NCBI GenBank assembly: GCA_041737595.1
Contig: JBGSRK010000010.1
Span: forward strand, 117,375 to 181,374
Reading direction: 5' to 3'
Origin: Patescibacteria group bacterium
GTDB lineage: Bacteria > Patescibacteriota > CPR2 > UBA1875
Length of the DNA: 64,000 nucleotides
Shown here: piece after piece, positions 1,876-59,436 of the stretch
How the letters are laid out: each line of letters starts with the position of its first letter
Position numbering within the stretch: the first letter of the stretch is position 1
Made by a program: the position numbers and the translations under genes
The notes under the pieces: generated by a model
The model's database searches: none
What the model was told of the DNA's origin: nothing
What the model saw: the letters and a program-made list of their open reading frames with translations, nothing else

Positions 1876-2967
1876 TTATTTTAAATCTTTGAATAATTTA
1901 CTTATATTAGAAAGCCATAAATTATAATCATATTTTTTTATGGCATCTTTTTGCCCATTTTTTGCAATTTCTAAAGCCTTTGAGAGATTATTTATAACAT
2001 ATTCAATTTTTTCCATTAGATCATTACTATTTACATCTTTTGTAACAAAACCAGAAACACTATCTTCTACAATCTCTGGGAGTGATCCTTTTGGTGTAAC
2101 AATAACAGGCAAACCAGTCATCATAGCCTCAACTGTTGCTAGCCCAAAGCCCTCCGAAAGAGATGGTTGGATATAAACATCCCATTTATTTAAATATTTA
2201 TAGATATCGTCTTTTTGGCCCAAAAGTTCAACTTTATTATTTAACCCAAAACTATTAATCATATTCTCAAGATTATTTCTTTCTGCACCTTCACCCATGA
2301 TTTCCAATTTAATATTTTTGTTTTCTACTTGTGATATAGATTTTATAAGTTCACCAAAATTTTTTACTGGGTGTAACCGTCCAATTGAACCAATAACCAA
2401 GCATTTGTCATCCTGAGGCAGAGCCGAAGGATCTATAGATTCTTCGTTACACTCAGAATGAAGCTCAAAAAAAACACCATTATAGATAACTGTTATTTTA
2501 TCTTCTTTGACCCCTTCTTGTATTAGGCCTTTTTTAAGATATTCTGAAACAGTAACATACTTCGAAGTAGCGAAGCGTAAAAGTCTATCAGAAACATAAT
2601 AAATTATTTTTTTAAAAATATTCCTCTGATAATCAGTTTTCCAATCACTATGGATTATAGTTATTACGGGTATTTTATATAAAAATCCCCATAGACGACC
2701 ATAAAAATTTGAAACCATCCCCATTGTTACTATGGTAGAAATATTCTTAAAGTATTTTGATCCAGGGAGAAAAGAAATGCATTTATTAAAAACTTTTGTT
2801 TCAAATTTTAATTCCTTAAGTTCATCTACAAGTGGCCAATTATTTATTGAGTATAAATGAAGATTAATTTTATTATCTTTTTTTAGACCATTAAATAAAT
2901 TTAAAATATAGGTATAAATACCACCTTTGTTTTGTGCCCCACCATATAATATGACTATGTTTTTCAT
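1876..2967 (-). CDS. Glycosyltransferase family 4
   Basis: 363 aa. C-terminal EGFGLATVEAMMTGLPVIVTPKGSLPEIV is the GT4/GT1 EX7E region. Confidence 0.8.
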   Translation of the reverse strand: MKNIVILYGGAQNKGGIYTYILNLFNGLKKDNKINLHLYSINNWPLVDELKELKFETKVFNKCISFLPGSKYFKNISTIVTMGMVSNFYGRLWGFLYKIPVITIIHSDWKTDYQRNIFKKIIYYVSDRLLRFATSKYVTVSEYLKKGLIQEGVKEDKITVIYNGVFFELHSECNEESIDPSALPQDDKCLVIGSIGRLHPVKNFGELIKSISQVENKNIKLEIMGEGAERNNLENMINSFGLNNKVELLGQKDDIYKYLNKWDVYIQPSLSEGFGLATVEAMMTGLPVIVTPKGSLPEIVEDSVSGFVTKDVNSNDLMEKIEYVINNLSKALEIAKNGQKDAIKKYDYNLWLSNISKLFKDLK

Positions 2968-8195: not shown

Positions 8196-9578
8196 ATGAA
8201 AAAAGATATAATAATTTTATCTGTAGGTCCAGTGCCCACTCAAGATAATAAGATCGTTGAGGGGGGAGGGCTAAGAGCCTGGGGGTTAGCTAACGGTTTA
8301 AGCCAGAATGATATTAAAGTCACTGTGGCAGTACCAGACTCTTACAAAATAGAAGACCAGAACATTAACAACATTAATATTGTTAGTTGGGATTTTAACA
8401 ATGTAATCGATTTATGCAACAAATACAATACCGTATGTGTTTTGTACTCTAGGGCAGATCTGATGCAATTTTTAACAGACAATCTTGACCCTAAAAAAGT
8501 AGTGATCATAGATTTGTATGTACCAATATACATAGAGTCGTTAGCTCGAAAAGTTCCTAGAGATATTAATGGGGTTAATAACCATTTGCAAAATATTAAA
8601 TATTGGAATTCAGCATTCACGAGAGGGGATTATTTTATTTGTGCAAACAAGAATCAACATCATTTGTATACTGGATTATTAAGCGCCTTTGGCAGGATAA
8701 GCCCAGTTAGTAAAGTAGAAAATATATTAAAAGAAGTCCCTTTTGGAATCTATAGCACTCCAATAGGAAACAAGGCTAAACTGCCCGCTAAATATAAAAA
8801 ACAAAATGGCGATTTTGTTATTCTTTGGTTTGGGGGCATATATCCCTGGTTTGACATAGAGCCACTACTAAAAACTATTAAAGATCTTTCTGATAAGAAT
8901 AGCCAGTTAAAGTTATATGTAGTCGGTGGCAAAAACCCGTTTGTGAAGGATGAACAATTTATTAAGAAATATAAGGATACAGTTAACCTAGCTAAGAAGA
9001 TGGGTCTTTTGGATAAAAACATATTTTTTAAGGATTGGATTTCTTACGAAGATAGAGAGTCCTGGTATAACACGGCCGATATAATAATTAATTTACATAA
9101 TCCTGGCAGTGAGTCAATGTATGCATGGAGAACAAGGGTAGTCGACTTCATTTGGGCTGGAAGACCAATAATATCTAGCGGAGGAGACGAACTAAGCTCT
9201 ATGATGGAGAAAAAAGATGCTGCTTATATCCTCAAAAGTAACACAGAAGAAGAGATTTCAAAAGCTATATTAAAGGTTAAAGATGACAAGAAATATAGAG
9301 AGAAAATAATAAATAACCTGAAAGAAATGCAAAAAAGCTTGTACTGGGAAAATACAACAAAAGAGTTGTCTAGATTTATAAATAATCCTCAAATTGCAAA
9401 GGATCGTGACTTCTTTTTAAAGAACCATATAAATTTTAGTCCCCTAGAAAAAACTCATCACAATTCCAAAGAAAATAGGAAATATAACCAGCTTTCCAGG
9501 GCTGTTTTTATCTATAAATCTGAGGGCTTAAAGTCTTTATTGAAAAGAACCAGAAATTATCTAGGAAAGTTTTTTTAA
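8196..9578 (+). CDS. Glycosyltransferase (GT4-like, two-domain)
   Basis: 460 aa. C-terminal DFIWAGRPIISSGGDELSSMMEKKDAAYIL resembles the GT1/GT4 C-domain. Divergently oriented to the flanking genes. Confidence 0.5.
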   Translation: MKKDIIILSVGPVPTQDNKIVEGGGLRAWGLANGLSQNDIKVTVAVPDSYKIEDQNINNINIVSWDFNNVIDLCNKYNTVCVLYSRADLMQFLTDNLDPKKVVIIDLYVPIYIESLARKVPRDINGVNNHLQNIKYWNSAFTRGDYFICANKNQHHLYTGLLSAFGRISPVSKVENILKEVPFGIYSTPIGNKAKLPAKYKKQNGDFVILWFGGIYPWFDIEPLLKTIKDLSDKNSQLKLYVVGGKNPFVKDEQFIKKYKDTVNLAKKMGLLDKNIFFKDWISYEDRESWYNTADIIINLHNPGSESMYAWRTRVVDFIWAGRPIISSGGDELSSMMEKKDAAYILKSNTEEEISKAILKVKDDKKYREKIINNLKEMQKSLYWENTTKELSRFINNPQIAKDRDFFLKNHINFSPLEKTHHNSKENRKYNQLSRAVFIYKSEGLKSLLKRTRNYLGKFF

Positions 9579-14932: not shown

Positions 14933-17092
14933 TTAATAGATTATAGGTCCAAGAAAAAGAGAATTAAGTGCATTATTAGAAATTGGAACTATATTACCCC
15001 ATTTATATAATGGATCATAAACACTATGTTCATTAAAAGTTTGTGCACTAAAAACTGGCATTTTAGAACCTGACCCAATAACATAAACTGAACCATTATT
15101 TGAACCAAGTCTAGTTAGACGATTTGGAGAAGGATAATTTAAAAGAAAGGTATTATTTTTAGTATAAAAAATATTTATCCATGCAAACCCCCAATTATAA
15201 AAAGTATCTACATCAACGATTGGCCTTTTACCATCATCATCCATAAAATAAACCGAACCGCCATACGAATAGGTTACCAAACGTGGAAAAGTAATAAGTG
15301 CTCCTTTTGTCATTAAATTATAGGTATTTGCTGAAATTTTTTTAATATCACCCCATCCTAAACCCCAATTATCTTTAAATATATTAAAAGTGTCTGAGTC
15401 ATTAATTGGTCTTAATTTACCTTCTTGGGCCAAATAAACACTCCCAGTGTACAAAGCTAATTGAGTTAGTGGTTCTCCAGTTGGATATGTGTTAATAGTT
15501 GATAATGGTGCCCAATATACATTATCCCAATTAAAACCCCAATTATTGAATATACTACTATTTATAATTGGTCTCTTGTAGCCATTTTCAATATAAAAAA
15601 CACCACCAAGATTATATGATCCAATAAGATAGTCTTCAAAATTAACATTAAAAGTAACTGAATTTGCGTCGTGGCTATTTTGGGTAATTCTTATTTTATT
15701 CGCAGAATCATAAAACTCTCCTCCATCAGTAAGGGCAATATCTGACCAATTATTTGCTGGAGTCATATCTAAAAGATATGTGTCAAAAGGAACAGGCGGA
15801 TTATAATAAGGAGTATTAAAATAATCGGTATAAATTCTCCCAATAAGTCCCCTCGTAACCCCGGTGGGAAGATTAATGTCAAACCCTGTCGGTTGGCGAT
15901 ATTCAAACCAATAATAATCACTGGTGTTTGGTTTGGCGATTTTTAAAGCATGGTATCCCATTGTCGAGCTTTCCAAATCATCAATCGTATATGTCCCCGA
16001 CGTAGTAATGGTTCTCACCTTACCGTCCGGGACCCAACCTGCTTTATTTTTCCAGGCTGCATTCATATGAAAAACATTTGTCCAGCTACCGTTGCCACCC
16101 ATAACATCATATGCATCCTCATATCCTGTTGCCCCAGGCGTGCAAGAGGCATAAGCAACGATTGTTGATGCTCCGCAGTCTAAATTGCTTGAATGACCAG
16201 CACCGAAATTGTGCCCTAATTCATGAGAATAAACAAACCGGTCATTGTTTCCATTGTACCAAGTTTCGTCCCCGGAGACTTCTCCTAAACCTGCCCAACT
16301 ACACGACAAATTGTATGGGAAAATATACATAAATTTGGCATAGCTTGCTAAATTATATCCAGCATCTGTTGCGGCAGTGCGAGCAGCAACAGTCCATTGA
16401 TCTAATAGATTCCCAACTCCATAATATGAACATCCGACACCACTACTAAAAGGAATCGTGAGCCAACTTGACGTAACATTAGTAACGGTGCCATTTATTG
16501 ATACTTCTCCATTAGAAGCTTGTTTATAATAACTATTTGCCGAATCGGCATTTGAAAAAATCTGACCAGTAATTAGTGCCTGAGTAAAAGGCGCTGCTGA
16601 TGGGTCATTTTCCCAATTAAAAGTAATTGCAAGAACATCTTGCTGGCCGGTAATTTCTCTAACTGGTGGAATTAGAGTTTTGACTGTTTCAGCAACAAAT
16701 AAACCATCTATTTGATAACCTTCAACATTAACAGTTGAACCTGATTCTGCCATTTTCGTATCTTTTAAACCATAAAGATCAAATTTATTATTATCAGTTT
16801 CTAAAATAGTTATTTCAGTACTAGTATTCTCAGATGAAGCAATTAATCTTTTCACTTCTCCTTTTATACTTATCTTGGGAATATCTTTAAAATCATCTTT
16901 TATGAGCGCTTTTGAATCTGTTTGTATTTTTTTAATTAAACTTTTTTTATCAGAAATATGGGTGTACGTTTTTTGTTTATCTGGATTATTTATTTTAAAT
17001 TGTAATTGATTATTAACATCAATAGAATTTGGACTACCCCAAAACAAGACTAAAGCAAAAACAAACAATAGAAGATGTAATATTTTCTTCAT
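14933..17092 (-). CDS. Secreted metzincin-family zinc metalloprotease with C-terminal ~40-aa repeat domain
   Basis: 719 aa with a signal peptide (MKKILHLLLFVFALVLFWG) and VYSHELGHNFGAGHS, which is HEXXHXXGXXH. The C-terminal roughly 210 aa consist of repeated G-x-Y-x-I-x-x-G-x-[KR]-R-P-I...F...GF-W units shared with the next gene. Confidence 0.6.
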   Translation of the reverse strand: MKKILHLLLFVFALVLFWGSPNSIDVNNQLQFKINNPDKQKTYTHISDKKSLIKKIQTDSKALIKDDFKDIPKISIKGEVKRLIASSENTSTEITILETDNNKFDLYGLKDTKMAESGSTVNVEGYQIDGLFVAETVKTLIPPVREITGQQDVLAITFNWENDPSAAPFTQALITGQIFSNADSANSYYKQASNGEVSINGTVTNVTSSWLTIPFSSGVGCSYYGVGNLLDQWTVAARTAATDAGYNLASYAKFMYIFPYNLSCSWAGLGEVSGDETWYNGNNDRFVYSHELGHNFGAGHSSNLDCGASTIVAYASCTPGATGYEDAYDVMGGNGSWTNVFHMNAAWKNKAGWVPDGKVRTITTSGTYTIDDLESSTMGYHALKIAKPNTSDYYWFEYRQPTGFDINLPTGVTRGLIGRIYTDYFNTPYYNPPVPFDTYLLDMTPANNWSDIALTDGGEFYDSANKIRITQNSHDANSVTFNVNFEDYLIGSYNLGGVFYIENGYKRPIINSSIFNNWGFNWDNVYWAPLSTINTYPTGEPLTQLALYTGSVYLAQEGKLRPINDSDTFNIFKDNWGLGWGDIKKISANTYNLMTKGALITFPRLVTYSYGGSVYFMDDDGKRPIVDVDTFYNWGFAWINIFYTKNNTFLLNYPSPNRLTRLGSNNGSVYVIGSGSKMPVFSAQTFNEHSVYDPLYKWGNIVPISNNALNSLFLGPIIY
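15334..15509. repeat. ~177-bp near-identical segment shared between the two paralogous secreted-protein genes (copy 1)
   Basis: Direct comparison: ...tttaatatcaccccatcctaaaccccaattatctttaaatatattaaaagtgtctgagtcattaattggtcttaatttaccttcttgggcc... There are 2 mismatches against 17543..17718, and the flanks are about 80% identical. Confidence 0.8.
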
Positions 17093-17141: not shown

Positions 17142-19205
17142 CTAATAAATAATTTCTCCCAATTGTAATAAAGAGAGTGGATAATCAGAAATTGGTACAA
17201 CATCTTCCCAGCGATATAATGGATCAAATGTACTGTGGTTAATAAACGATTGAGCACTTGAAATTGGTCTTTTTGTTTTATTTTCAATGAGATAAATTGA
17301 CCCACGGTTAGAAACTAATCTAGTTAAGCGATTAGGGGAGGGGTAATTTAAAAGAAAGTTATTATTTTTAGTATAAAAAATATTATTCCAAATAAACCCA
17401 AAATTATTAAAAGTATCAATACTGTTAATTGGTCTTTTGCCATCGATATCCATAAAAAAAACTGAACCACCATATGAATAGGTAACTATTCTAGGAAAAT
17501 ATATTTTCACACCGACATTATAATAATTAAATAGATCAGTAGAAATTTTTTTAATATCACCCCATCCTAAGCCCCAATTATCTTTAAATATATTAAAAGT
17601 GTCTGAGTCATTAATTGGTCTTAATTTACCTTCTTGGGCCAAATAAACACTCCCAGAGTACAAAGCTAATTGAGTTAGTGGTTCTCCAGTTGGATATGTG
17701 TTAATAGTTGATAATGGTAAATTTGTATAATTATTTGGATACCCCCATGAATTATTTATTTCAATTTTATTTGCGGGTCTTTTTTCTCCACCATCAATCA
17801 AATAGTAACCATTTAGACCTTTTGTAGATACCCAAGGATTAACATTTGACCCTATAGATAAAAAATTAATAGAACTATCATCTAATATTGTAATATTATA
17901 ATCTTCAAGTTTTAATATAGCTATTAGTTGGTCGGAAATTAATTTTTTATTTCCATCATCAATAATATATTTTAAACCACTACTACCCTTAACTATAAAT
18001 GAAGAAAAATTATTCCCTAATATAAAATTAATATCACTTGAAATATCAGTAATTTTTATTTTAGGATAACCTAATTGTGAAATTAATTCTGGGTTTGTGA
18101 TATATCTCAATATCCCGTTATCCATAAAATAAAATTTACCGCTTTCTGGCTTTCTTATTATTTGTGATAATGACCCAATATCGTTTAACGTATATGAATT
18201 AATTGTATTAAGAATAATAATATCATCCCAATTAAACCCCCATAAATTAAATTGTTCTGGACTTACTATACCAAGTCTTGACCCTCTATCTATAAAATAA
18301 ACATGACCATTAATATTTATTAGCTTTGTTAAATTAACTAAACTTGTTGTATAACTATTAAAACTTTCTTCTGTAATATAATAAATTTTTCTTGTATTAA
18401 ATCCCCAACTATTAAAAATATTTGCTGGAATTGGATATTTTTTATTATTATCGACTAGATATACTCCCGTAGGGTTGTTTTCATTAACAATCAAATATGG
18501 GCCATCAGAATTAACAGTGCTAAAAAAATTTGTAAAAATTAGATAAAACGATGTTTGGATATGTGGCGTATATCTATACAAGGCTGCGGTTGGTCCATTT
18601 TTAATAATAAATGTTTGGCCATCAATTGTTATCGGATAATCAACCCAGTATTTAGTAGTACCAAAATCATTATATTCACTATGAGAAATTGCATAATCAG
18701 ACCACTTTTTTAGTCCAAAAGAACCCCATGCGACCTGCATTGAAAACCCCTTATAAACAGATAAAGTAATGCCACTTTCTAAATAGCCATAACCCATAGC
18801 TCCGTCTAATGAACTTTGCCCATTAAGTAACACTGAATTAGTAATTAAACTTTGTTCTTTTTGAAGTGTTACAAGAATTACTTTTGGGCTAAGACCATTC
18901 CAAATTGCACAATTATATATAATTTTTGATGCAGACCAACCCTTAACATTAACCGAGGGGCCTATATATACATCATTCGGCTCAGTATAATTTTTAAGAT
19001 AACTATTTTTTTCAACTAAAAATGACTGAATTTCAGCTTCATTCATAGAATATCTATTATAATATACCCCTTCATCAATAACTAAACTATTATCAAGGGC
19101 TGCCAATACTTCACTGGGGTTAAAAATAAGAAACAAACATGAAACAAAAAACATTAACCCTAGGATAATTAGTTTTGAATTAAATTTAAAGATAGTTAAT
19201 TTCAT
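17142..19205 (-). CDS. Secreted repeat protein, paralog of the preceding gene's C-terminal domain
   Basis: 687 aa with a signal peptide. The C-terminal region is near-identical to the 14933..17092 product (STINTYPTGEPLTQLALY.GSVYLAQEGKLRPINDSDTFNIFKDNWGLGWGDIKKIS...) and more internal repeats of the same type follow. Confidence 0.55.
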   Translation of the reverse strand: MKLTIFKFNSKLIILGLMFFVSCLFLIFNPSEVLAALDNSLVIDEGVYYNRYSMNEAEIQSFLVEKNSYLKNYTEPNDVYIGPSVNVKGWSASKIIYNCAIWNGLSPKVILVTLQKEQSLITNSVLLNGQSSLDGAMGYGYLESGITLSVYKGFSMQVAWGSFGLKKWSDYAISHSEYNDFGTTKYWVDYPITIDGQTFIIKNGPTAALYRYTPHIQTSFYLIFTNFFSTVNSDGPYLIVNENNPTGVYLVDNNKKYPIPANIFNSWGFNTRKIYYITEESFNSYTTSLVNLTKLININGHVYFIDRGSRLGIVSPEQFNLWGFNWDDIIILNTINSYTLNDIGSLSQIIRKPESGKFYFMDNGILRYITNPELISQLGYPKIKITDISSDINFILGNNFSSFIVKGSSGLKYIIDDGNKKLISDQLIAILKLEDYNITILDDSSINFLSIGSNVNPWVSTKGLNGYYLIDGGEKRPANKIEINNSWGYPNNYTNLPLSTINTYPTGEPLTQLALYSGSVYLAQEGKLRPINDSDTFNIFKDNWGLGWGDIKKISTDLFNYYNVGVKIYFPRIVTYSYGGSVFFMDIDGKRPINSIDTFNNFGFIWNNIFYTKNNNFLLNYPSPNRLTRLVSNRGSIYLIENKTKRPISSAQSFINHSTFDPLYRWEDVVPISDYPLSLLQLGEIIY
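17543..17718. repeat. ~177-bp near-identical segment (copy 2)
   Basis: Second copy of the repeat at 15334..15509. Confidence 0.8.
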
Positions 19206-22566: not shown

Positions 22567-23430
22567 TTAGCTAATCTCTTTTTCTAAATATTTTTTTAGT
22601 TCATCTTTGAAACCATCGTGTTTTAATGCCATTGAGATGGTTGCCTTTAAAAAACCAAGCTTATCACCTGTATCATAAACTGTCCCTTTGTAATTTTTAC
22701 CCATTAAACCTTCTTTTTTTGCCATTTCAAGCATCGCGTCAGTAAGTTCTATCTCCCCTCTTTCAGAAAAACCAACATCTTCAAGATATTTAAATATTAC
22801 AGGGTCAAATACATATCGCCCAAGGATAGAATAATTTGATGGAGCATCTTTTAGTTTTGGTTTTTCAACTACACCTTTTATCATAAATTCTTCACCTTTT
22901 TCTTTAGGATCAATAATCCCATATAGATGAACCTTTTCATCGGGGACTTCAGATGCTGTTATTGTTGAAATCCCTGTTTTTTCATAATTATCAATTAGGT
23001 CTTTTAAACAATCCGGCCCATTTGCGACTAAAACATCTGGGAGTAACACTGCAAATGGTTCATCTCCGATAATGTCCTTTGCTCTAAGAACTGCGTGCCC
23101 AAGGCCAAGTGGTTCTTTTTGACGAATATAAATAATATTTGCCATCTCTGAGATTGCTTCCATTTCATGAAGTAGTTCTAATTTATTTTTTTTCTTTAAT
23201 GCATCTTCGAGTTCATATGAATGATCAAAATAGTCTTCAATTGCAGATTTACCGCGCCCAGTAATAAAGATGATATCAGTAATACCCGCTTTAACTGCTT
23301 CTTCTACTGCATAATGAATCGCCGGCTTATCAATGATTGGGACCATCTCTTTTGGCATTGATTTTGTGGCTGGTAAAAATCTTGTCCCAAACCCCGCTGC
23401 GGGGATTACTGCTTTTCTAACTTTTTTCAT
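22567..23430 (-). CDS. galU: UTP--glucose-1-phosphate uridylyltransferase
   Basis: 287 aa. KAVIPAAGFGTRFLPATKSMPKEMVPIIDKPAIHYAVEEAVKAGITDIIFITGRGKSAIEDYFD aligns with E. coli GalU. Confidence 0.85.
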   Translation of the reverse strand: MKKVRKAVIPAAGFGTRFLPATKSMPKEMVPIIDKPAIHYAVEEAVKAGITDIIFITGRGKSAIEDYFDHSYELEDALKKKNKLELLHEMEAISEMANIIYIRQKEPLGLGHAVLRAKDIIGDEPFAVLLPDVLVANGPDCLKDLIDNYEKTGISTITASEVPDEKVHLYGIIDPKEKGEEFMIKGVVEKPKLKDAPSNYSILGRYVFDPVIFKYLEDVGFSERGEIELTDAMLEMAKKEGLMGKNYKGTVYDTGDKLGFLKATISMALKHDGFKDELKKYLEKEIS

Positions 23431-23505
23431 ATCAGTATTTTATATTTAAAACACCCCTCCGTCAAATACCCATATTAATCTCTTTTTATTATATTATTTA
23501 TAGTA

Positions 23506-23537
23506 CTTATGCTTTAGTAATGTACATTAGTAAAGTG
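23506..23537. repeat. 32-bp direct repeat copy A1 containing 12-bp perfect palindrome TAATGTACATTA (candidate operator), in galU promoter region
   Basis: cttatgctttagtaatgtacattagtaaagtg is identical to 23970..24001. The central 24 bp are near-palindromic. Confidence 0.8.
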
Positions 23538-23573
23538 ATATCTAGGTGGTTTAATATTGTAAATTATAGCTGT

Positions 23574-23954
23574 TTATCTTTTAGATATCGGTATTATGCC
23601 TGGAATACCCTTGTATTTTACTTTATGACTTTTTGAATAATTAATAATTACATCTTTTATATTATCAATATTTTTTCTAGTATTTCTAGAAGGATTTCTG
23701 CGAAAACCATACCCAATATGGTTACTAAGTCTAGCAATAATAGTTGAGCTAACCTTAACTTCTTGTTGAATCATTGAATATGAATATCCTGCATTAAGCA
23801 TTTCGAGTATTTTAAGTCTTCTTGCCATATCATTAATTTCACGAGGAGTTAAAATTCTTTCAAAAAGTAACTCAACATCTTTTGTTGTATTTGTAGAGGC
23901 AACTATTTTAATTAAATCTTTAATTTCTTTTTCAAACCAGATATCAATTGACAT
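23574..23954 (-). CDS. TrpR-like DNA-binding protein, YerC/YecD family
   Basis: 126 aa. ...FERILTPREINDMARRLKILEMLNAGYSYSMIQQEVKVSSTIIARLSNHIGYGF matches the YerC/YecD (Trp repressor-like) family. Its paralog lies at 58845..59201. Confidence 0.7.
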   Translation of the reverse strand: MSIDIWFEKEIKDLIKIVASTNTTKDVELLFERILTPREINDMARRLKILEMLNAGYSYSMIQQEVKVSSTIIARLSNHIGYGFRRNPSRNTRKNIDNIKDVIINYSKSHKVKYKGIPGIIPISKR

Positions 23955-23969
23955 GAGTTCTCCTTTATC

Positions 23970-24001
23970 CTTATGCTTTAGTAATGTACATTAGTAAAGT
24001 G
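23970..24001. repeat. 32-bp direct repeat copy A2 (same palindrome), immediately upstream of the TrpR-like gene
   Basis: Identical to 23506..23537. It lies in the promoter region of 23574..23954. Confidence 0.8.
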
Positions 24002-24031
24002 TTTATATATTTATTATTTCAAAGTATTTTT

Positions 24032-25783
24032 TTATAAATAGACTAAATAAATATCAAGCTTGGGGACTGTTGTTTTTTCGCCAGAATCAAAAACTAGAAT
24101 ATTGCCCGAGATATCAATACGAGGTAAATAATAAATTGGGAAATCAATTATTGTTTCCGTGGATGAGCTAATGTCATAGATATGGATGTAATAATAACCA
24201 CTTTCAAATTTTGTATAAACAATACGCCCTGAATCTATTCGAATCGCGCCAGAAACACCTCCGTCTGTAATCAATTTTTCTTCTCTGGTCTTAATATTTA
24301 TTGAATATAATTTTTTATCCTTTTCCCAAATAATATAATCTTCTGAAATATCTATTGTCCCCGTTGACCCAATATTTGTTTTTATCAACTCTTCAGCGCC
24401 CCCAATTTCTTTAAGGTATAAATCGGTCCGGTTCCCAATTCTTGTATCTTTCCAAATAACATTATCTTCTGAAATTTTTGGTTGATATTGACTCCCGGTC
24501 CCAGTTACAAAAGGAATTTCTCCGTTTGACTTATTTAAATCAAGATAATAAATATCAGAATCCTTACCATTCCGCATATCACTCCAAACAACAATCCCGC
24601 TATCATTTAAAACTGGGCTTAATTGATCTTTTGGCGCATTTGTGACCAAAAAAGGCGAGTTTGATATAAAACTATAACAATAAATATTCGTTGCAGTTGA
24701 ACTAAAATGTGAATCTTGGGCTGTATAACATGCATAATCTCCACCAACTTGTGGCTCTTGGGCAATACTTACACCTTCTATTGCAATATTTACACCCTTA
24801 ATTTCACCATCTGAAATATCATAATAAAATAACTTTTTGGGGCTATTGCCGTTTTCGTTTTTCTTCCAATCCTGCCAAACAATTATTTTCCCATTCGTAG
24901 TCGGATATCTTTGACTTTCGGGATCGTTTGTAACATTAATAACTTCTCTTTTCAGTTCAATTGATTTTTCTTCAGATTCAGCCGTTAGACCATTATTAAA
25001 GTAAGTAATGACTCGATAATAATAATTTTTACCTGTTAATAGATTTTTATCTTCATAATTTAATTTATTAACATCATTGGTTTCGAAAATTGGTGAAAAC
25101 CCAGCCCCAGATTCGAGGGAACGCTCTAAAACATACTTATTAAAATCTGAGTCTTCTGATTTAGCCCAAGAAATATTAATCGAGTTACTTTGAGAATTAA
25201 GTACAATTTCTGAACCTTTTTGTGGTCGATGAGAATCTATAAAATCAGTAGGTGAATAATAAAAATCTTTAATATTTTCTTTATCTAACCCGCTCGGCCA
25301 ATAATTCGCCTTTAGATTATTTTTTCTAATTTCAAAATGTAAATGTGATGCCCATCTCCCATCGGCATTTCCTATTTTTCCAATACAATCACCTTTTTTT
25401 AATAATTGACCTTCATTTACATTAATTTCAGAAAGATGTGCATATTGTGACCAAACTGTTATTGGGTTATCATGTTTTATTAAAACTATTTTTCCCCAAC
25501 CACTACCATAATCTTTTGCACTTATAATAGTTCCGTCTGAGATGGAATATACAGGGTCCCCATAATCATCTTCACCACTTCCCCTGTTCCAATCTTCTCC
25601 TGGATGCCAAATTGTTCCGTTCCATTCAAGATAACCCCATCCATCATTCCCACCAAATATTTCACCTCTTTTATAATTATCTCCATCGGGTTTGCCCGCA
25701 GGATAATCAAAACCAGCATTACTTGCAAAAGTAATATTTGGTAATAATAACATAAGAATTATAAGGTAAAAAAAATTAAACAT
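24032..25783 (-). CDS. Secreted M23-family peptidoglycan endopeptidase with FN3-like and beta-propeller-like C-terminal domains
   Basis: 583 aa with a signal peptide. GDPVYSISDGTIISAKDYGSGWGKIVLIKHDN...YAHLSEINVNEGQLLKKGDCIGKIGN...HLHFEIRK is the LytM/M23 motif set. The C-terminal half has repeated Y/W-rich propeller-like blades. Confidence 0.75.
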   Translation of the reverse strand: MFNFFYLIILMLLLPNITFASNAGFDYPAGKPDGDNYKRGEIFGGNDGWGYLEWNGTIWHPGEDWNRGSGEDDYGDPVYSISDGTIISAKDYGSGWGKIVLIKHDNPITVWSQYAHLSEINVNEGQLLKKGDCIGKIGNADGRWASHLHFEIRKNNLKANYWPSGLDKENIKDFYYSPTDFIDSHRPQKGSEIVLNSQSNSINISWAKSEDSDFNKYVLERSLESGAGFSPIFETNDVNKLNYEDKNLLTGKNYYYRVITYFNNGLTAESEEKSIELKREVINVTNDPESQRYPTTNGKIIVWQDWKKNENGNSPKKLFYYDISDGEIKGVNIAIEGVSIAQEPQVGGDYACYTAQDSHFSSTATNIYCYSFISNSPFLVTNAPKDQLSPVLNDSGIVVWSDMRNGKDSDIYYLDLNKSNGEIPFVTGTGSQYQPKISEDNVIWKDTRIGNRTDLYLKEIGGAEELIKTNIGSTGTIDISEDYIIWEKDKKLYSINIKTREEKLITDGGVSGAIRIDSGRIVYTKFESGYYYIHIYDISSSTETIIDFPIYYLPRIDISGNILVFDSGEKTTVPKLDIYLVYL

Positions 25784-26573: not shown

Positions 26574-26579
26574 ATATTT

Positions 26580-26608
26580 ATCATAAGCATAATGAATAAT
26601 ACGGTCAA
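26580..26608 (-). promoter_or_regulatory. Sigma70-like promoter TTGACC-N17-TATGAT
   Basis: On the - strand: TTGACCgtattattcattatgctTATGAT, with the -10 ending about 7 nt before the ATG at 26573. Confidence 0.45.
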
Positions 26609-26636
26609 GTATTTTATCTATACAGAAAATGAAACA

Positions 26637-26676: not shown

Positions 26677-27024
26677 CTAGTTCGGGTTCAACACCGGGTT
26701 GGCTTCGAGGATATTCCCAATAATGCGATCGAAAACAATCGGGAGACCATCGATACCCTGAAGGGTACCACAACGCCGGCTGACACCATCAACGTTGCCG
26801 AGGTCAGGAGTTGATATGAAAGTGATGTCATCGTTTGGTGCACGATGAACCACAAACATGCCCTCAGGGCCCTGATATGACACGCAGTGACCTTCCTTCA
26901 GAGTTACAGCAACACGACGATCTTCACCAATTCCGTAGGTAGTATCAAACTGACCTGCGTAGGCTGGGAATGTCTCGAGAAATTGCTCAAGACGTGTCCG
27001 GACCTTACATGTACTTGCCTTCAT
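26677..27024 (-). CDS. Hypothetical protein encoded in an anomalously GC-rich (~50% GC) islet
   Basis: 115 aa: MKASTCKVRTRLEQFLETFPAYAGQFDTTYGIGEDRRVAVTLKEGHCVSYQGPEGMFVVHRAPNDD... Its codon usage is GC3-rich, unlike every neighbouring gene, and I recognise no family. Confidence 0.4.
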   Translation of the reverse strand: MKASTCKVRTRLEQFLETFPAYAGQFDTTYGIGEDRRVAVTLKEGHCVSYQGPEGMFVVHRAPNDDITFISTPDLGNVDGVSRRCGTLQGIDGLPIVFDRIIGNILEANPVLNPN

Positions 27025-58256: not shown

Positions 58257-58742
58257 ATGACACTTTCATGGGACCTATTTGTACTTCTTTTTACCGGAAT
58301 TATTGTTGTATATTCTATTCTTTTAGGTAGAAATAGAATAGTCGGTATTCTTATAAATATATATATTTCTCTTGCTGTAACATTAGTTGTTGGTGATGCG
58401 GTTTATAATTTAGTTTCTAATTTTACAATTATCTCGAATAGATTTTCCGTAACTGAATTTGCCGTAAAAACAATATTCCTAGTAACCGTCACGGCTCTAC
58501 TTTCAATTAAAAGTGAAATCGCTGGACTTGATAGTGGAGGATCAGTATCAAAAATTCAAGCAGGCATTTATGGGTTTTTGACTTCTGGTTTTATTCTTTC
58601 TACAATCTTTTCATTTATGGCTGATTCGCAAATAATTGCCCTTGATTCAAATTTTGTAAATTTAATAGTAAGTTTTTATATGGTACTTGTTGTTGCCCCA
58701 ATATTATTTATGATTGGAACTGCATTTACTAAAAAGTTCTAA
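58257..58742 (+). CDS. CvpA-family-like small membrane protein
   Basis: 161 aa with 4-5 TM helices. The N-terminal DLFVLLFTGIIVVYSILLGRNRIVG resembles Colicin_V/CvpA. Confidence 0.4.
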   Translation: MTLSWDLFVLLFTGIIVVYSILLGRNRIVGILINIYISLAVTLVVGDAVYNLVSNFTIISNRFSVTEFAVKTIFLVTVTALLSIKSEIAGLDSGGSVSKIQAGIYGFLTSGFILSTIFSFMADSQIIALDSNFVNLIVSFYMVLVVAPILFMIGTAFTKKF

Positions 58743-58798
58743 AAAATATTTAACTTTAACAATTTTAGTTTATAAATTATCTTTTATATTATTTATCA

Positions 58799-58817
58799 CT
58801 ACACTACTACGTAGTAA
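58799..58817. repeat. 19-bp repeat copy B1 with 12-bp perfect palindrome TACTACGTAGTA, downstream of the second TrpR-like gene
   Basis: ctacactactacgtagtaa is identical to 59266..59284. Confidence 0.75.
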
Positions 58818-58844
58818 GACAGTGGTAAAAAAATATTTTAAGAT

Positions 58845-59201
58845 TTAATTAGGAATAATTCTTTTAATAACAGCAGGAGAACCTTTATAACCACGAGGAG
58901 AATATTTATGAATAGGTTTCTTATTATTTATTGCAATCTTTTTAGAAGTTCTTCTAAAACCAAAACCAATTTGATTGGCAACCCTTCCTATGGTGGTTGG
59001 GCTTACACGAAGTATATCTTGTATCTCTAAATATGAAGTACCCATATCTAATAATCTGACAATTTCTAATCTTTTAGCCATATCATTTATTTCACGAGGT
59101 GTTAATATTCTATCAAAAAGTACACGAACTTCTTTGTCGCTATTTGTCTTTGCAATAACTTGAATCAATTTATTGATTTCTTTTTCTCTCCAGTAATCCA
59201 T
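58845..59201 (-). CDS. TrpR-like DNA-binding protein, YerC/YecD family (paralog 2)
   Basis: 118 aa. MDYWREKEINKLIQVIAKTNSDKEVRVLFDRILTPREINDMAKRLEIVRLLDMGTSYLEIQ... is about 55% identical to 23574..23954. Confidence 0.7.
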   Translation of the reverse strand: MDYWREKEINKLIQVIAKTNSDKEVRVLFDRILTPREINDMAKRLEIVRLLDMGTSYLEIQDILRVSPTTIGRVANQIGFGFRRTSKKIAINNKKPIHKYSPRGYKGSPAVIKRIIPN

Positions 59202-59265
59202 ATTATTTATTATACTTATGTTTTTAAATAATTTAAAGATTATAATAAAATCTACACCTATTTTG

Positions 59266-59284
59266 CTACACTACTACGTAGTAA
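59266..59284. repeat. 19-bp repeat copy B2 (palindrome TACTACGTAGTA) in promoter region of TrpR-like paralog 2
   Basis: Identical to 58799..58817, about 65 nt upstream of the start codon at 59201. Confidence 0.75.
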
Positions 59285-59436
59285 TGTAGTGTTAATTACT
59301 TGTTGTTGATACTCTAAATCTATAAATTATATATTAATAAAAAATATTAGTAACGATAGCGTTAAAAATATAAAGAATATTAAAATCTTAATCAAAAGAG
59401 CCCGCTTGGGGGAGCGGACTCAAAAACAGGGGAAAG

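Follow-up and report, generated by a model that had tools for sequence, protein, structure and literature searches.

Predicted operator pairs bracket two TrpR/HisR-type regulator genes in a Patescibacteria genome

Two bracketed regulator genes in one window

Contig JBGSRK010000010.1 of a Patescibacteria group bacterium carries, within the 64-kb stretch analyzed here (hereafter the window), two paralogous genes for TrpR/HisR-like regulators, A and B, which lie ∼35 kb apart in the same genome and are each bracketed by their own pair of sites; for paralogue A these are two identical 32-mers. To our knowledge, transcription factors of candidate-phyla-radiation (CPR; Patescibacteria) bacteria are almost entirely uncharacterised. 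From sequence comparison we consider it probable that the TrpR/HisR-type protein whose gene lies between the two 32-mers uses them as its cognate operators, because the half-sites of the 32-mers match those of the repressor HisR, the site frame and the upstream/downstream bracket are kept in all relatives examined, and the inner sequence is specific to lineage and paralogue. The features of the first module are the following.

23506..23537, minus strand: predicted downstream operator of paralogue A, 36 nt past its stop and 75 nt short of the galU ATG (23430)
23574..23954, minus strand: TrpR/HisR-like gene, paralogue A, 126 amino acids (aa), with a TrpR-fold core (residues 8–80) and a family-specific C-terminal helix and beta-hairpin with a YKG motif
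23970..24001, minus strand: predicted upstream operator of paralogue A; the 28-nt site proper, 23974–24001, reads CACTTTACTAATGTACATTACTAAAGCA on the gene strand and leaves a residual 4 nt, TAAG

Exact copies of the 32-mer CTTATGCTTTAGTAATGTACATTAGTAAAGTG are found at two places in the window, 23506–23537 and 23970–24001, in agreement with a preliminary description of this DNA, which put them ∼20 nt upstream of the gene and ∼40 nt past its stop; the measured distances are 15 and 36 nt. The two copies are direct repeats, identical at 32/32 positions and 464 bp apart from start to start. No further match with up to three mismatches was found in the whole window, and 100 dinucleotide shuffles gave none by chance. 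On the gene strand the repeat reads CACTTTA-CTAATGTACATTAC-TAAAGCA-TAAG, i.e. CACTTTA-N14-TAAAGCA, and its core TAATGTACATTA, singled out in the preliminary description, is a perfect palindrome of 12 nt within an extended palindrome of 24 nt (92%). The upstream copy ends 15 nt from the ATG and directly adjoins an AAGGAG ribosome-binding site (RBS). When the 200-nt flanks of all 65 window genes were compared, paralogue A shared an exact word of 32 nt and 58845..59201 (paralogue B) one of 19 nt, against 12 nt for the next best gene and a median of 9 nt.

Relatives of the locus were fetched via exact-protein look-ups and pattern scans, which gave 18 non-redundant loci (with names from the series L001–L022). 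The second module, absent from the preliminary description, spans 58797–59291 with its operator pair and is listed here together with a candidate extra site.

2550..2577, strand unassigned: candidate extra site, CAGTAACATACTTCGAAGTAGCGAAGCG, scoring 24 bits with the weight matrix vs a shuffle maximum of 12.6
58797..58824, minus strand: predicted downstream operator of paralogue B, CACTGTCTTACTACGTAGTAGTGTAGTG, 20 nt past the stop in a convergent intergenic region
58845..59201, minus strand: TrpR/HisR-like gene, paralogue B, 118 aa, PF01371 at 62 bits (cut-off 27), 50% identity to paralogue A
59209..59237, minus strand: promoter-like site of paralogue B, TTTAAA-17-TATAAT, 7 nt from −10 to ATG
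59264..59291, minus strand: predicted upstream operator of paralogue B, CACTACATTACTACGTAGTAGTGTAGCA, 62 nt ahead of the ATG and 26 nt upstream of the −35 element

Paralogue B has the same subfamily motifs as A (LTPREINDMAKR, GFGFRR, and YKG), and its convergent neighbor, 58257..58742 on the plus strand, is a real conserved gene whose product is 45% identical to a family neighbor in L021. That one genome holds two paralogues with distinct site pairs argues more strongly than anything else for assigning each site to the protein whose gene it brackets. Operator geometry also differs within the genome, the A site lying at the RBS and the B site 26 nt upstream of −35. No third paralogue was found in the window; the 115-aa open reading frame (ORF) at 26677..27024 has no homology to the family. 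The candidate site at 2550–2577 lies within a glycosyltransferase gene (1876..2967, minus strand), is nearer to the B type than to the A type, and has a 16-nt stretch (AAGTAGCGAAGCGTAA) in common with the first of the downstream sites in L007; it may be an additional operator or may match by coincidence.

A narrow subfamily of the TrpR/HisR fold

Paralogue A belongs to PF01371 (Trp_repressor; 56.9 bits, cut-off 27) and scores below the NCBIfam cut-offs for YerC/YecD (TIGR02531, 38.2 bits vs 42.2) and TrpR (TIGR01321, 36 bits vs 67.25). The label in the preliminary description, ‘TrpR-like (YerC/YecD)’, is therefore right in its first part and approximate in its second. A profile built from 31 homologues matched the solved HisR-type structures 3FRW, 3G1C, and 3KOR at E ∼1e-12 and Escherichia coli TrpR at E ∼0.1. 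The AlphaFold model of paralogue A (predicted local distance difference test score 80) has a helical TrpR/HisR core at residues 8–80, a helix at 96–108, and a beta-hairpin at 111–122; Foldseek aligned it to 3KOR, 3FRW, and 3G1C with target-normalized template-modeling (TM) scores of 0.66–0.74 and to E. coli TrpR with scores of 0.5–0.57.

Using hhalign, T36, R46, and R75 of paralogue A were placed on T44, R54, and R84 of TrpR, which make corepressor and DNA contacts. T36 and R46 do not vary among the 31 homologues, and position 75 has either R or K; the full set of invariant positions comprises T36-P-R-E-I-N-D, R46, Y59, G81xGFR, and Y114 of YKG, with K115 and G116 of that motif nearly invariant (at least 90%). 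Because the equivalents of the TrpR ligand contacts are invariant, a small-molecule corepressor is likely, possibly an amino-acid-like carboxylate.

An exhaustive profile search of 1.84 billion representatives recovered ∼17 full-length clusters at 50% identity (E ≤ 1e-27), after which scores dropped to generic TrpR/YerC proteins, marking a narrow and distinct TrpR/HisR subfamily. One family locus comes from a Candidatus Saccharibacteria metagenome-assembled genome, which together with the gene content points to a CPR origin of the window, and the subfamily with the C-terminal extension is probably restricted to CPR bacteria. We found no paper on this TrpR/HisR subfamily in CPR bacteria. Neither the family nor its core was found in 2.9 million viral contigs, where the lone ‘relative’ was the helix-turn-helix of a Mu-B-like ATPase, and a phage or mobile origin was rejected for want of any family member there.

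A common site frame across related loci

In Bacillus subtilis, YerC was identified in 2022 as HisR, a histidine-responsive repressor of the TrpR family, and binding to its operator was proven in vitro by electrophoretic mobility shift assay (EMSA); the 20-bp consensus is cacTTTAnnnnnnTAAAgtg (cacTTTA-N6-TAAAgtg), and roughly half of the genomes in that study have an autoregulatory site upstream of hisR (PMC9413887). The view that YerC/YecD proteins have no established function, taken in the preliminary description, is thus outdated.

Each of the 18 non-redundant loci has an exact word of 13–38 nt common to the 200-nt flanks on the two sides of the TrpR-like gene, vs a shuffle maximum of 10–14 nt. 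The sequence of the site is specific to the locus, e.g. CACTACACTAATATATATTAGTGTAGTG in L005, CACTTCTCTACATCGATGTAGAGAAGTG in L013, and CACTATCCTACTATATAGTAGGATAGCA in L020, so that the repeat pair recurs in the relatives as a layout with lineage-specific content. Copies within one locus agree on average at 25.5 of 28 positions and sites of different loci at 15.7 of 28; the A and B sites of the window agree at 14–16 of 28. Beneath this variation lies a common 28-nt frame with CACT at positions 1–4, T9A10, T19A20, and AG[TC][GA] at 25–28, in which the T9A10 and T19A20 steps are invariant (23/23 sites). A detector built on the frame only, and hence independent of training, found strong sites in 73.6 kb of these loci solely beside TrpR-like genes.

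These data bear directly on whether the repeats might be dispersed genomic elements, of the repetitive extragenic palindromic (REP) or miniature inverted-repeat transposable element type, that flank the gene by chance. Palindromic repeats are typical of REP elements, and our counts cover 64 kb of the genome; yet the A-type motif has two occurrences in those 64 kb, the window has no excess over chance of GAAAGCATAA, which could have been a general promoter or dispersed motif, no copies occur elsewhere in the 73.6 kb of related loci, and the position is kept in 18/18 loci while the sequence changes. On the DNA covered, we regard such an origin as very unlikely. The suggestion of the preliminary description that the repeat is a specific site of the bracketed gene is borne out, both by the HisR half-sites and by the lineage-specific pair in every locus.

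Greater weight attaches to a structural role, in which the palindromes would form RNA or DNA hairpins, either 5′/3′ stem-loops that stabilize or terminate the regulator mRNA or cruciforms. Many orthologous sites are perfect palindromes of 28–34 nt that fold at −11 to −16 kcal/mol (z −3.4 to −7.6), one compensatory change, A/T to C/G, separates the two copies of L016, and L009 has an additional, third copy whose GC-rich arms and T-run make it resemble a terminator after an elongation factor P gene, while the arm of the proximal copy in L009 overlaps the RBS. The window 32-mer, however, folds at only −2.4 kcal/mol (z = −0.95), as well as which 40 of 200 shuffles fold. The sites of L007, L010, L022, and L004 keep the frame but have lost central symmetry, and the first three of these show that a palindromic centre is unnecessary. 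Specific bases (CACT, T9A10, T19A20, and AGYR) are kept across lineages, beyond what mere pairing asks for, and they match a published protein operator. Scanning 23300–24200 revealed no terminator-like site and no U-tract, whereas recA in the same window has a canonical terminator that passes the scan. No Rfam family reached its gathering score at the locus, where the sole sub-threshold match was mir-7637 at 24174–24238 (21.2 bits vs a gathering score of 88, E 0.32), outside both copies; RNA genes across the whole window amount to four tRNAs. Hairpins as the main explanation are thus improbable, but some structural contribution of the palindromes is possible.

Imperfect 28-bp palindromes in direct orientation around a single gene also recall recombination or mobility sites, either dif/Xer-like 28-bp sites or the boundaries of a small cassette, which would make the gene a movable module. 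The core TAATGTACATTA resembles the centre of E. coli dif, ATAATGTATATTAT; the gene stands before a PsbP_2-like gene in L016, L020, and L021 and after an M23 gene in the window, L001, L004, and L007; and several assemblies break at the downstream copy. Against this, the module has no recombinase, and its two versions in one genome carry sites so different (14–16/28) that a shared Xer machinery would not tolerate them. The ‘empty’ M23–nucleotidyltransferase junctions of L020 and L021 retain no site, the viral contigs lack the family, and the half-sites match the bracketed protein's own family. We therefore hold recombination to be very unlikely.

The assembly breaks are worth recording in their own right. 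Six contigs, from L001–L004, L011, and L019 (five non-redundant loci; five assemblies, namely four Logan runs and one Joint Genome Institute sample), end in or just after the downstream site, and those of three different samples stop at the identical base. As the upstream and downstream copies of L001 share 13–14 nt, a k = 31 repeat does not account for the break; strain-level variation or rearrangement at the downstream site is possible.

By eye, recognition helix and site appear to go together in some loci: L013 and L019 share SSG.ISK and their site, and L005, L016, and L009 share SP.II[AS]R and CTAATAT. Covariation of recognition-helix residues with inner operator bases is not claimed, being confounded by phylogeny.

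Two further observations concern single relatives or small groups of them. In L018 (2938–3312) an in-frame TAA replaces a conserved Lys codon (MRVEKWYE*) and the called product starts at a later GTG, without the N-terminus; the two flanking sites of this locus are inverted, not direct. Several relatives (L014, L016, and L022) have the TrpR-like gene immediately after a NiFe-hydrogenase gene set with FAD/NAD-binding, Oxidored_q6, and NiFeSe_Hases domains.

Regulatory model, neighborhood, and known repressors

If the repeats are operators of the bracketed protein, as we favor, that protein would bind the 28-bp site, probably as two dimers. The 28-nt frame has YACT-like motifs at positions 1–4 and 9–12 and AGTR-like motifs at 17–20 and 25–28, and a HisR operator has CACT at 1–4 and AGTG at 17–20, so the frame can be read as two 20-bp HisR-type operators that overlap with an 8-bp offset. 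Tandem TrpR dimers have the same 8-bp register between overlapping sites (PMC9413887 text; 1TRR title).

The upstream A copy abuts the RBS between the M23 gene and the start codon, a position that points to negative autoregulation. Autoregulation through this copy, proposed in the preliminary description, appears well founded, given the HisR half-site match and the conserved upstream/downstream pair. As no independent promoter of paralogue A passes the scan, the upstream copy may block read-through from upstream genes or would occlude a weak internal promoter, TTTACT-17-CATAAG. This sequence, inside the A site, and TTGAAA-18-TTTACT, upstream of it, are both poor promoters by scan and by eye.

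Several findings weigh against this model of a 28-bp operator bound by the encoded protein. The tandem-dimer arrangement is partly borne out, with YACT at 9–12 in 10/21 sites and AGTR at 17–20 in 6/21, and the inner motifs of the window A site, TAAT/ATTA, are not canonical. No sigma-70 promoter for paralogue A passes the scan. Across loci the distance from site to ATG falls into two classes, 9–27 nt (abutting the RBS in some) and 44–103 nt (beyond −35), and with the operator start varying so widely no single occlusion mechanism fits all loci. Distances from upstream to downstream site range from 403 to 548 bp, and no helical phasing is seen. The inner positions change between lineages yet remain symmetric, which a hairpin constraint would also give, and the same holds for the compensatory pair in L016. 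Finally, site counts for the source genome cover the 64-kb window, and further sites elsewhere in the genome are possible.

The part played by the downstream copy is best judged with its neighbors in view.

22567..23430, minus strand: galU-like nucleotidyltransferase, the first gene downstream of paralogue A, followed by rmlA/B/C/D homologues
23437..23465, minus strand: sigma-70-like promoter of galU, TTGACG-17-TAAAAT (10/12), 6 nt from −10 to ATG; L007 has the same arrangement
24032..25783, minus strand: M23 peptidase, the gene upstream of paralogue A

As part of the same self-contained gene module, the downstream copy could cooperate with the upstream one in a loop of ∼460 bp, with the family-specific C-terminal extension as the candidate contact; a loop around the gene, as the preliminary description had suggested, is possible. 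Alternatively, it may be an insulating roadblock between the regulator gene and its neighbors; in the window, its effect would then be to reduce read-through into galU-rmlABCD, and the promoter of galU itself would not be switched. The data are compatible with looping, with a roadblock or insulator, and with control of the downstream genes.

The last of these has a stronger form, in which the galU-rmlABCD promoter has the downstream copy as its operator and the repressor thereby switches the whole surface-glycan locus together with itself. The downstream copy does lie in the intergenic region ahead of galU, the gene that comes after the site is co-directional in 17 of 18 loci, and the cell-envelope neighborhood is syntenic across loci, the PsbP_2-like/M23/nucleotidyltransferase set recurring beside the TrpR-like gene. 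In L005, L016, L020, and L021 the downstream site stands 9–15 nt upstream of a conserved A-tract and the TTGTAA −35 element of a PsbP_2-like/M23/nucleotidyltransferase operon, and the candidate site at 2550 is inside a glycosyltransferase gene. On the other side, the downstream genes vary by locus (a PsbP_2-like/M23 cluster, a TlyA-like methyltransferase in L009 and L018, or galU), and the downstream site of paralogue B sits between convergent genes. In the window the repeat ends about 40–44 nt upstream of the −35 element of galU, which has its own promoter, and is centred at ∼−94, too far for occlusion. The glycan locus, described as a colinear minus-strand operon in the preliminary description, is interrupted by a plus-strand ORF at 8196..9578. 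A glycan switch is thus possible but doubtful: a link of the family to cell-envelope genes is plausible, and gating of the whole 20-kb locus, as first put forward, is not supported.

A short stretch between the stop of paralogue A and the downstream site, ATATTGTAAAT at 23555–23565 (plus strand), matches the conserved −35 region TATTGTAAA found after the downstream site of L005, L016, L020, and L021; here it points antisense into the regulator gene and could be a rearrangement relic or an antisense promoter.

Other features of the neighborhood stand apart from the operators. The promoters of galU and paralogue B suggest that both mRNAs are leaderless. By eye, the PsbP_2-like gene has TTGACC-17-TATGAT at about 26575–26610, ending 6–7 nt before the ATG, without a Shine-Dalgarno sequence; since the promoters of galU, paralogue B, and the PsbP_2-like gene all end 6–7 nt before an ATG that lacks one, leaderless mRNAs may be frequent. 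The annotated start of the PsbP_2-like ORF (26645) is inside a terminator hairpin and probably too far upstream, an ATG at about 26572 being more likely. The 115-aa ORF at 26677–27024 has no Pfam match, looks more GC-rich than its surroundings, and has a perfect TTGACA-17-TATAAT ahead of it and terminator-like hairpins on both sides; it may be a recent acquisition. Two large adjacent genes, 14933..17092 and 17142..19205, share long identical stretches with many repeated 20-mers (15151–15406/17360–17615) and appear to be a recent tandem pair of paralogues encoding secreted or surface proteins.

Returning to the reading of the repeats as cognate operators, a further proposal, which we regard as possible but less likely than not, is that operator, gene, and operator form an insulated autoregulatory module of a CPR-restricted family: tetramers bound at the two ends would meet via the C-terminal extension, looping the gene or blocking transcription either way, and paralogues with orthogonal operator specificities would coexist in one small genome. 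If true, this would be a compact form of regulator insulation suited to genomes whose intergenic regions are very short, and it would supply orthogonal repressor/operator pairs as a ready set.

For the subfamily of ∼17 clusters, the comparison yields explicit predictions of lineage-specific operators and a shared 28-bp grammar, and the subfamily is tied to the experimentally grounded HisR/TrpR binding mode with a different site geometry and a conserved upstream/downstream bracket. The two paralogue/operator pairs of one genome make a direct comparison of cross-specificity possible. In practical terms the predictions offer targets for EMSA and DNA affinity purification sequencing (DAP-seq), and possibly orthogonal repressor/operator pairs. 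The biological value hinges on the role of the downstream copy, the underlying principle being conventional.

Judged from these comparisons, the HisR/TrpR fold, the half-sites, and autoregulation are known, and the predicted double-width 28-bp operator, the C-terminal extension, and the invariant operator–gene–operator layout are new. HisR is the nearest relative of paralogue A by sequence and fold; the two have in common a palindromic operator with half-sites cacTTTA/TAAAgtg, a site upstream of the regulator's own gene, and the Thr/Arg/Arg positions. The window protein differs in being ∼25 aa longer, with a C-terminal helix, a beta-hairpin, and the invariant YKG, in scoring under the TIGR02531 cut-off, and in its helix 3, which is LTPREINDMARR as compared with CTINELLSLSQR in HisR. 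Its predicted operator is 28 bp, with half-sites 8 bp wider apart (N14 vs N6), and so departs from the 20-bp HisR operator; and in the family described here there is always a second site past the end of the gene, a bracket unreported in the work on HisR. HisR-type proteins are short (<100 aa) and linked to genes of histidine biosynthesis or transport (PMC9413887). Paralogues A and B, at 126 and 118 aa with the C-terminal extension, do not fit that description, and his genes are absent among the immediate neighbors examined, which are an M23 peptidase gene, galU/rml, recA, and a type IV secretion system pilin gene.

Escherichia coli TrpR (1TRR, 1TRO) has the same fold, the LTP.E...R motif, the R84 equivalent, NACT-type half-sites, and the 8-bp register of tandem dimers. 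It is, however, a distant relative (E ∼0.1; 36 bits vs a cut-off of 67) with other target genes, and the tandem arrangement is inferred for the proteins described here.

Bracketed or looping repressor systems include lambda cI between OL and OR, lac with O1/O2/O3, and gal with OE/OI. The modules described here resemble these in that a regulator gene lies between its own predicted operator clusters, where cooperative binding and looping would sharpen autoregulation, and differ from them in the unrelated protein family, the far shorter spacing (∼460 bp), and an oligomerization between sites that is here proposed.

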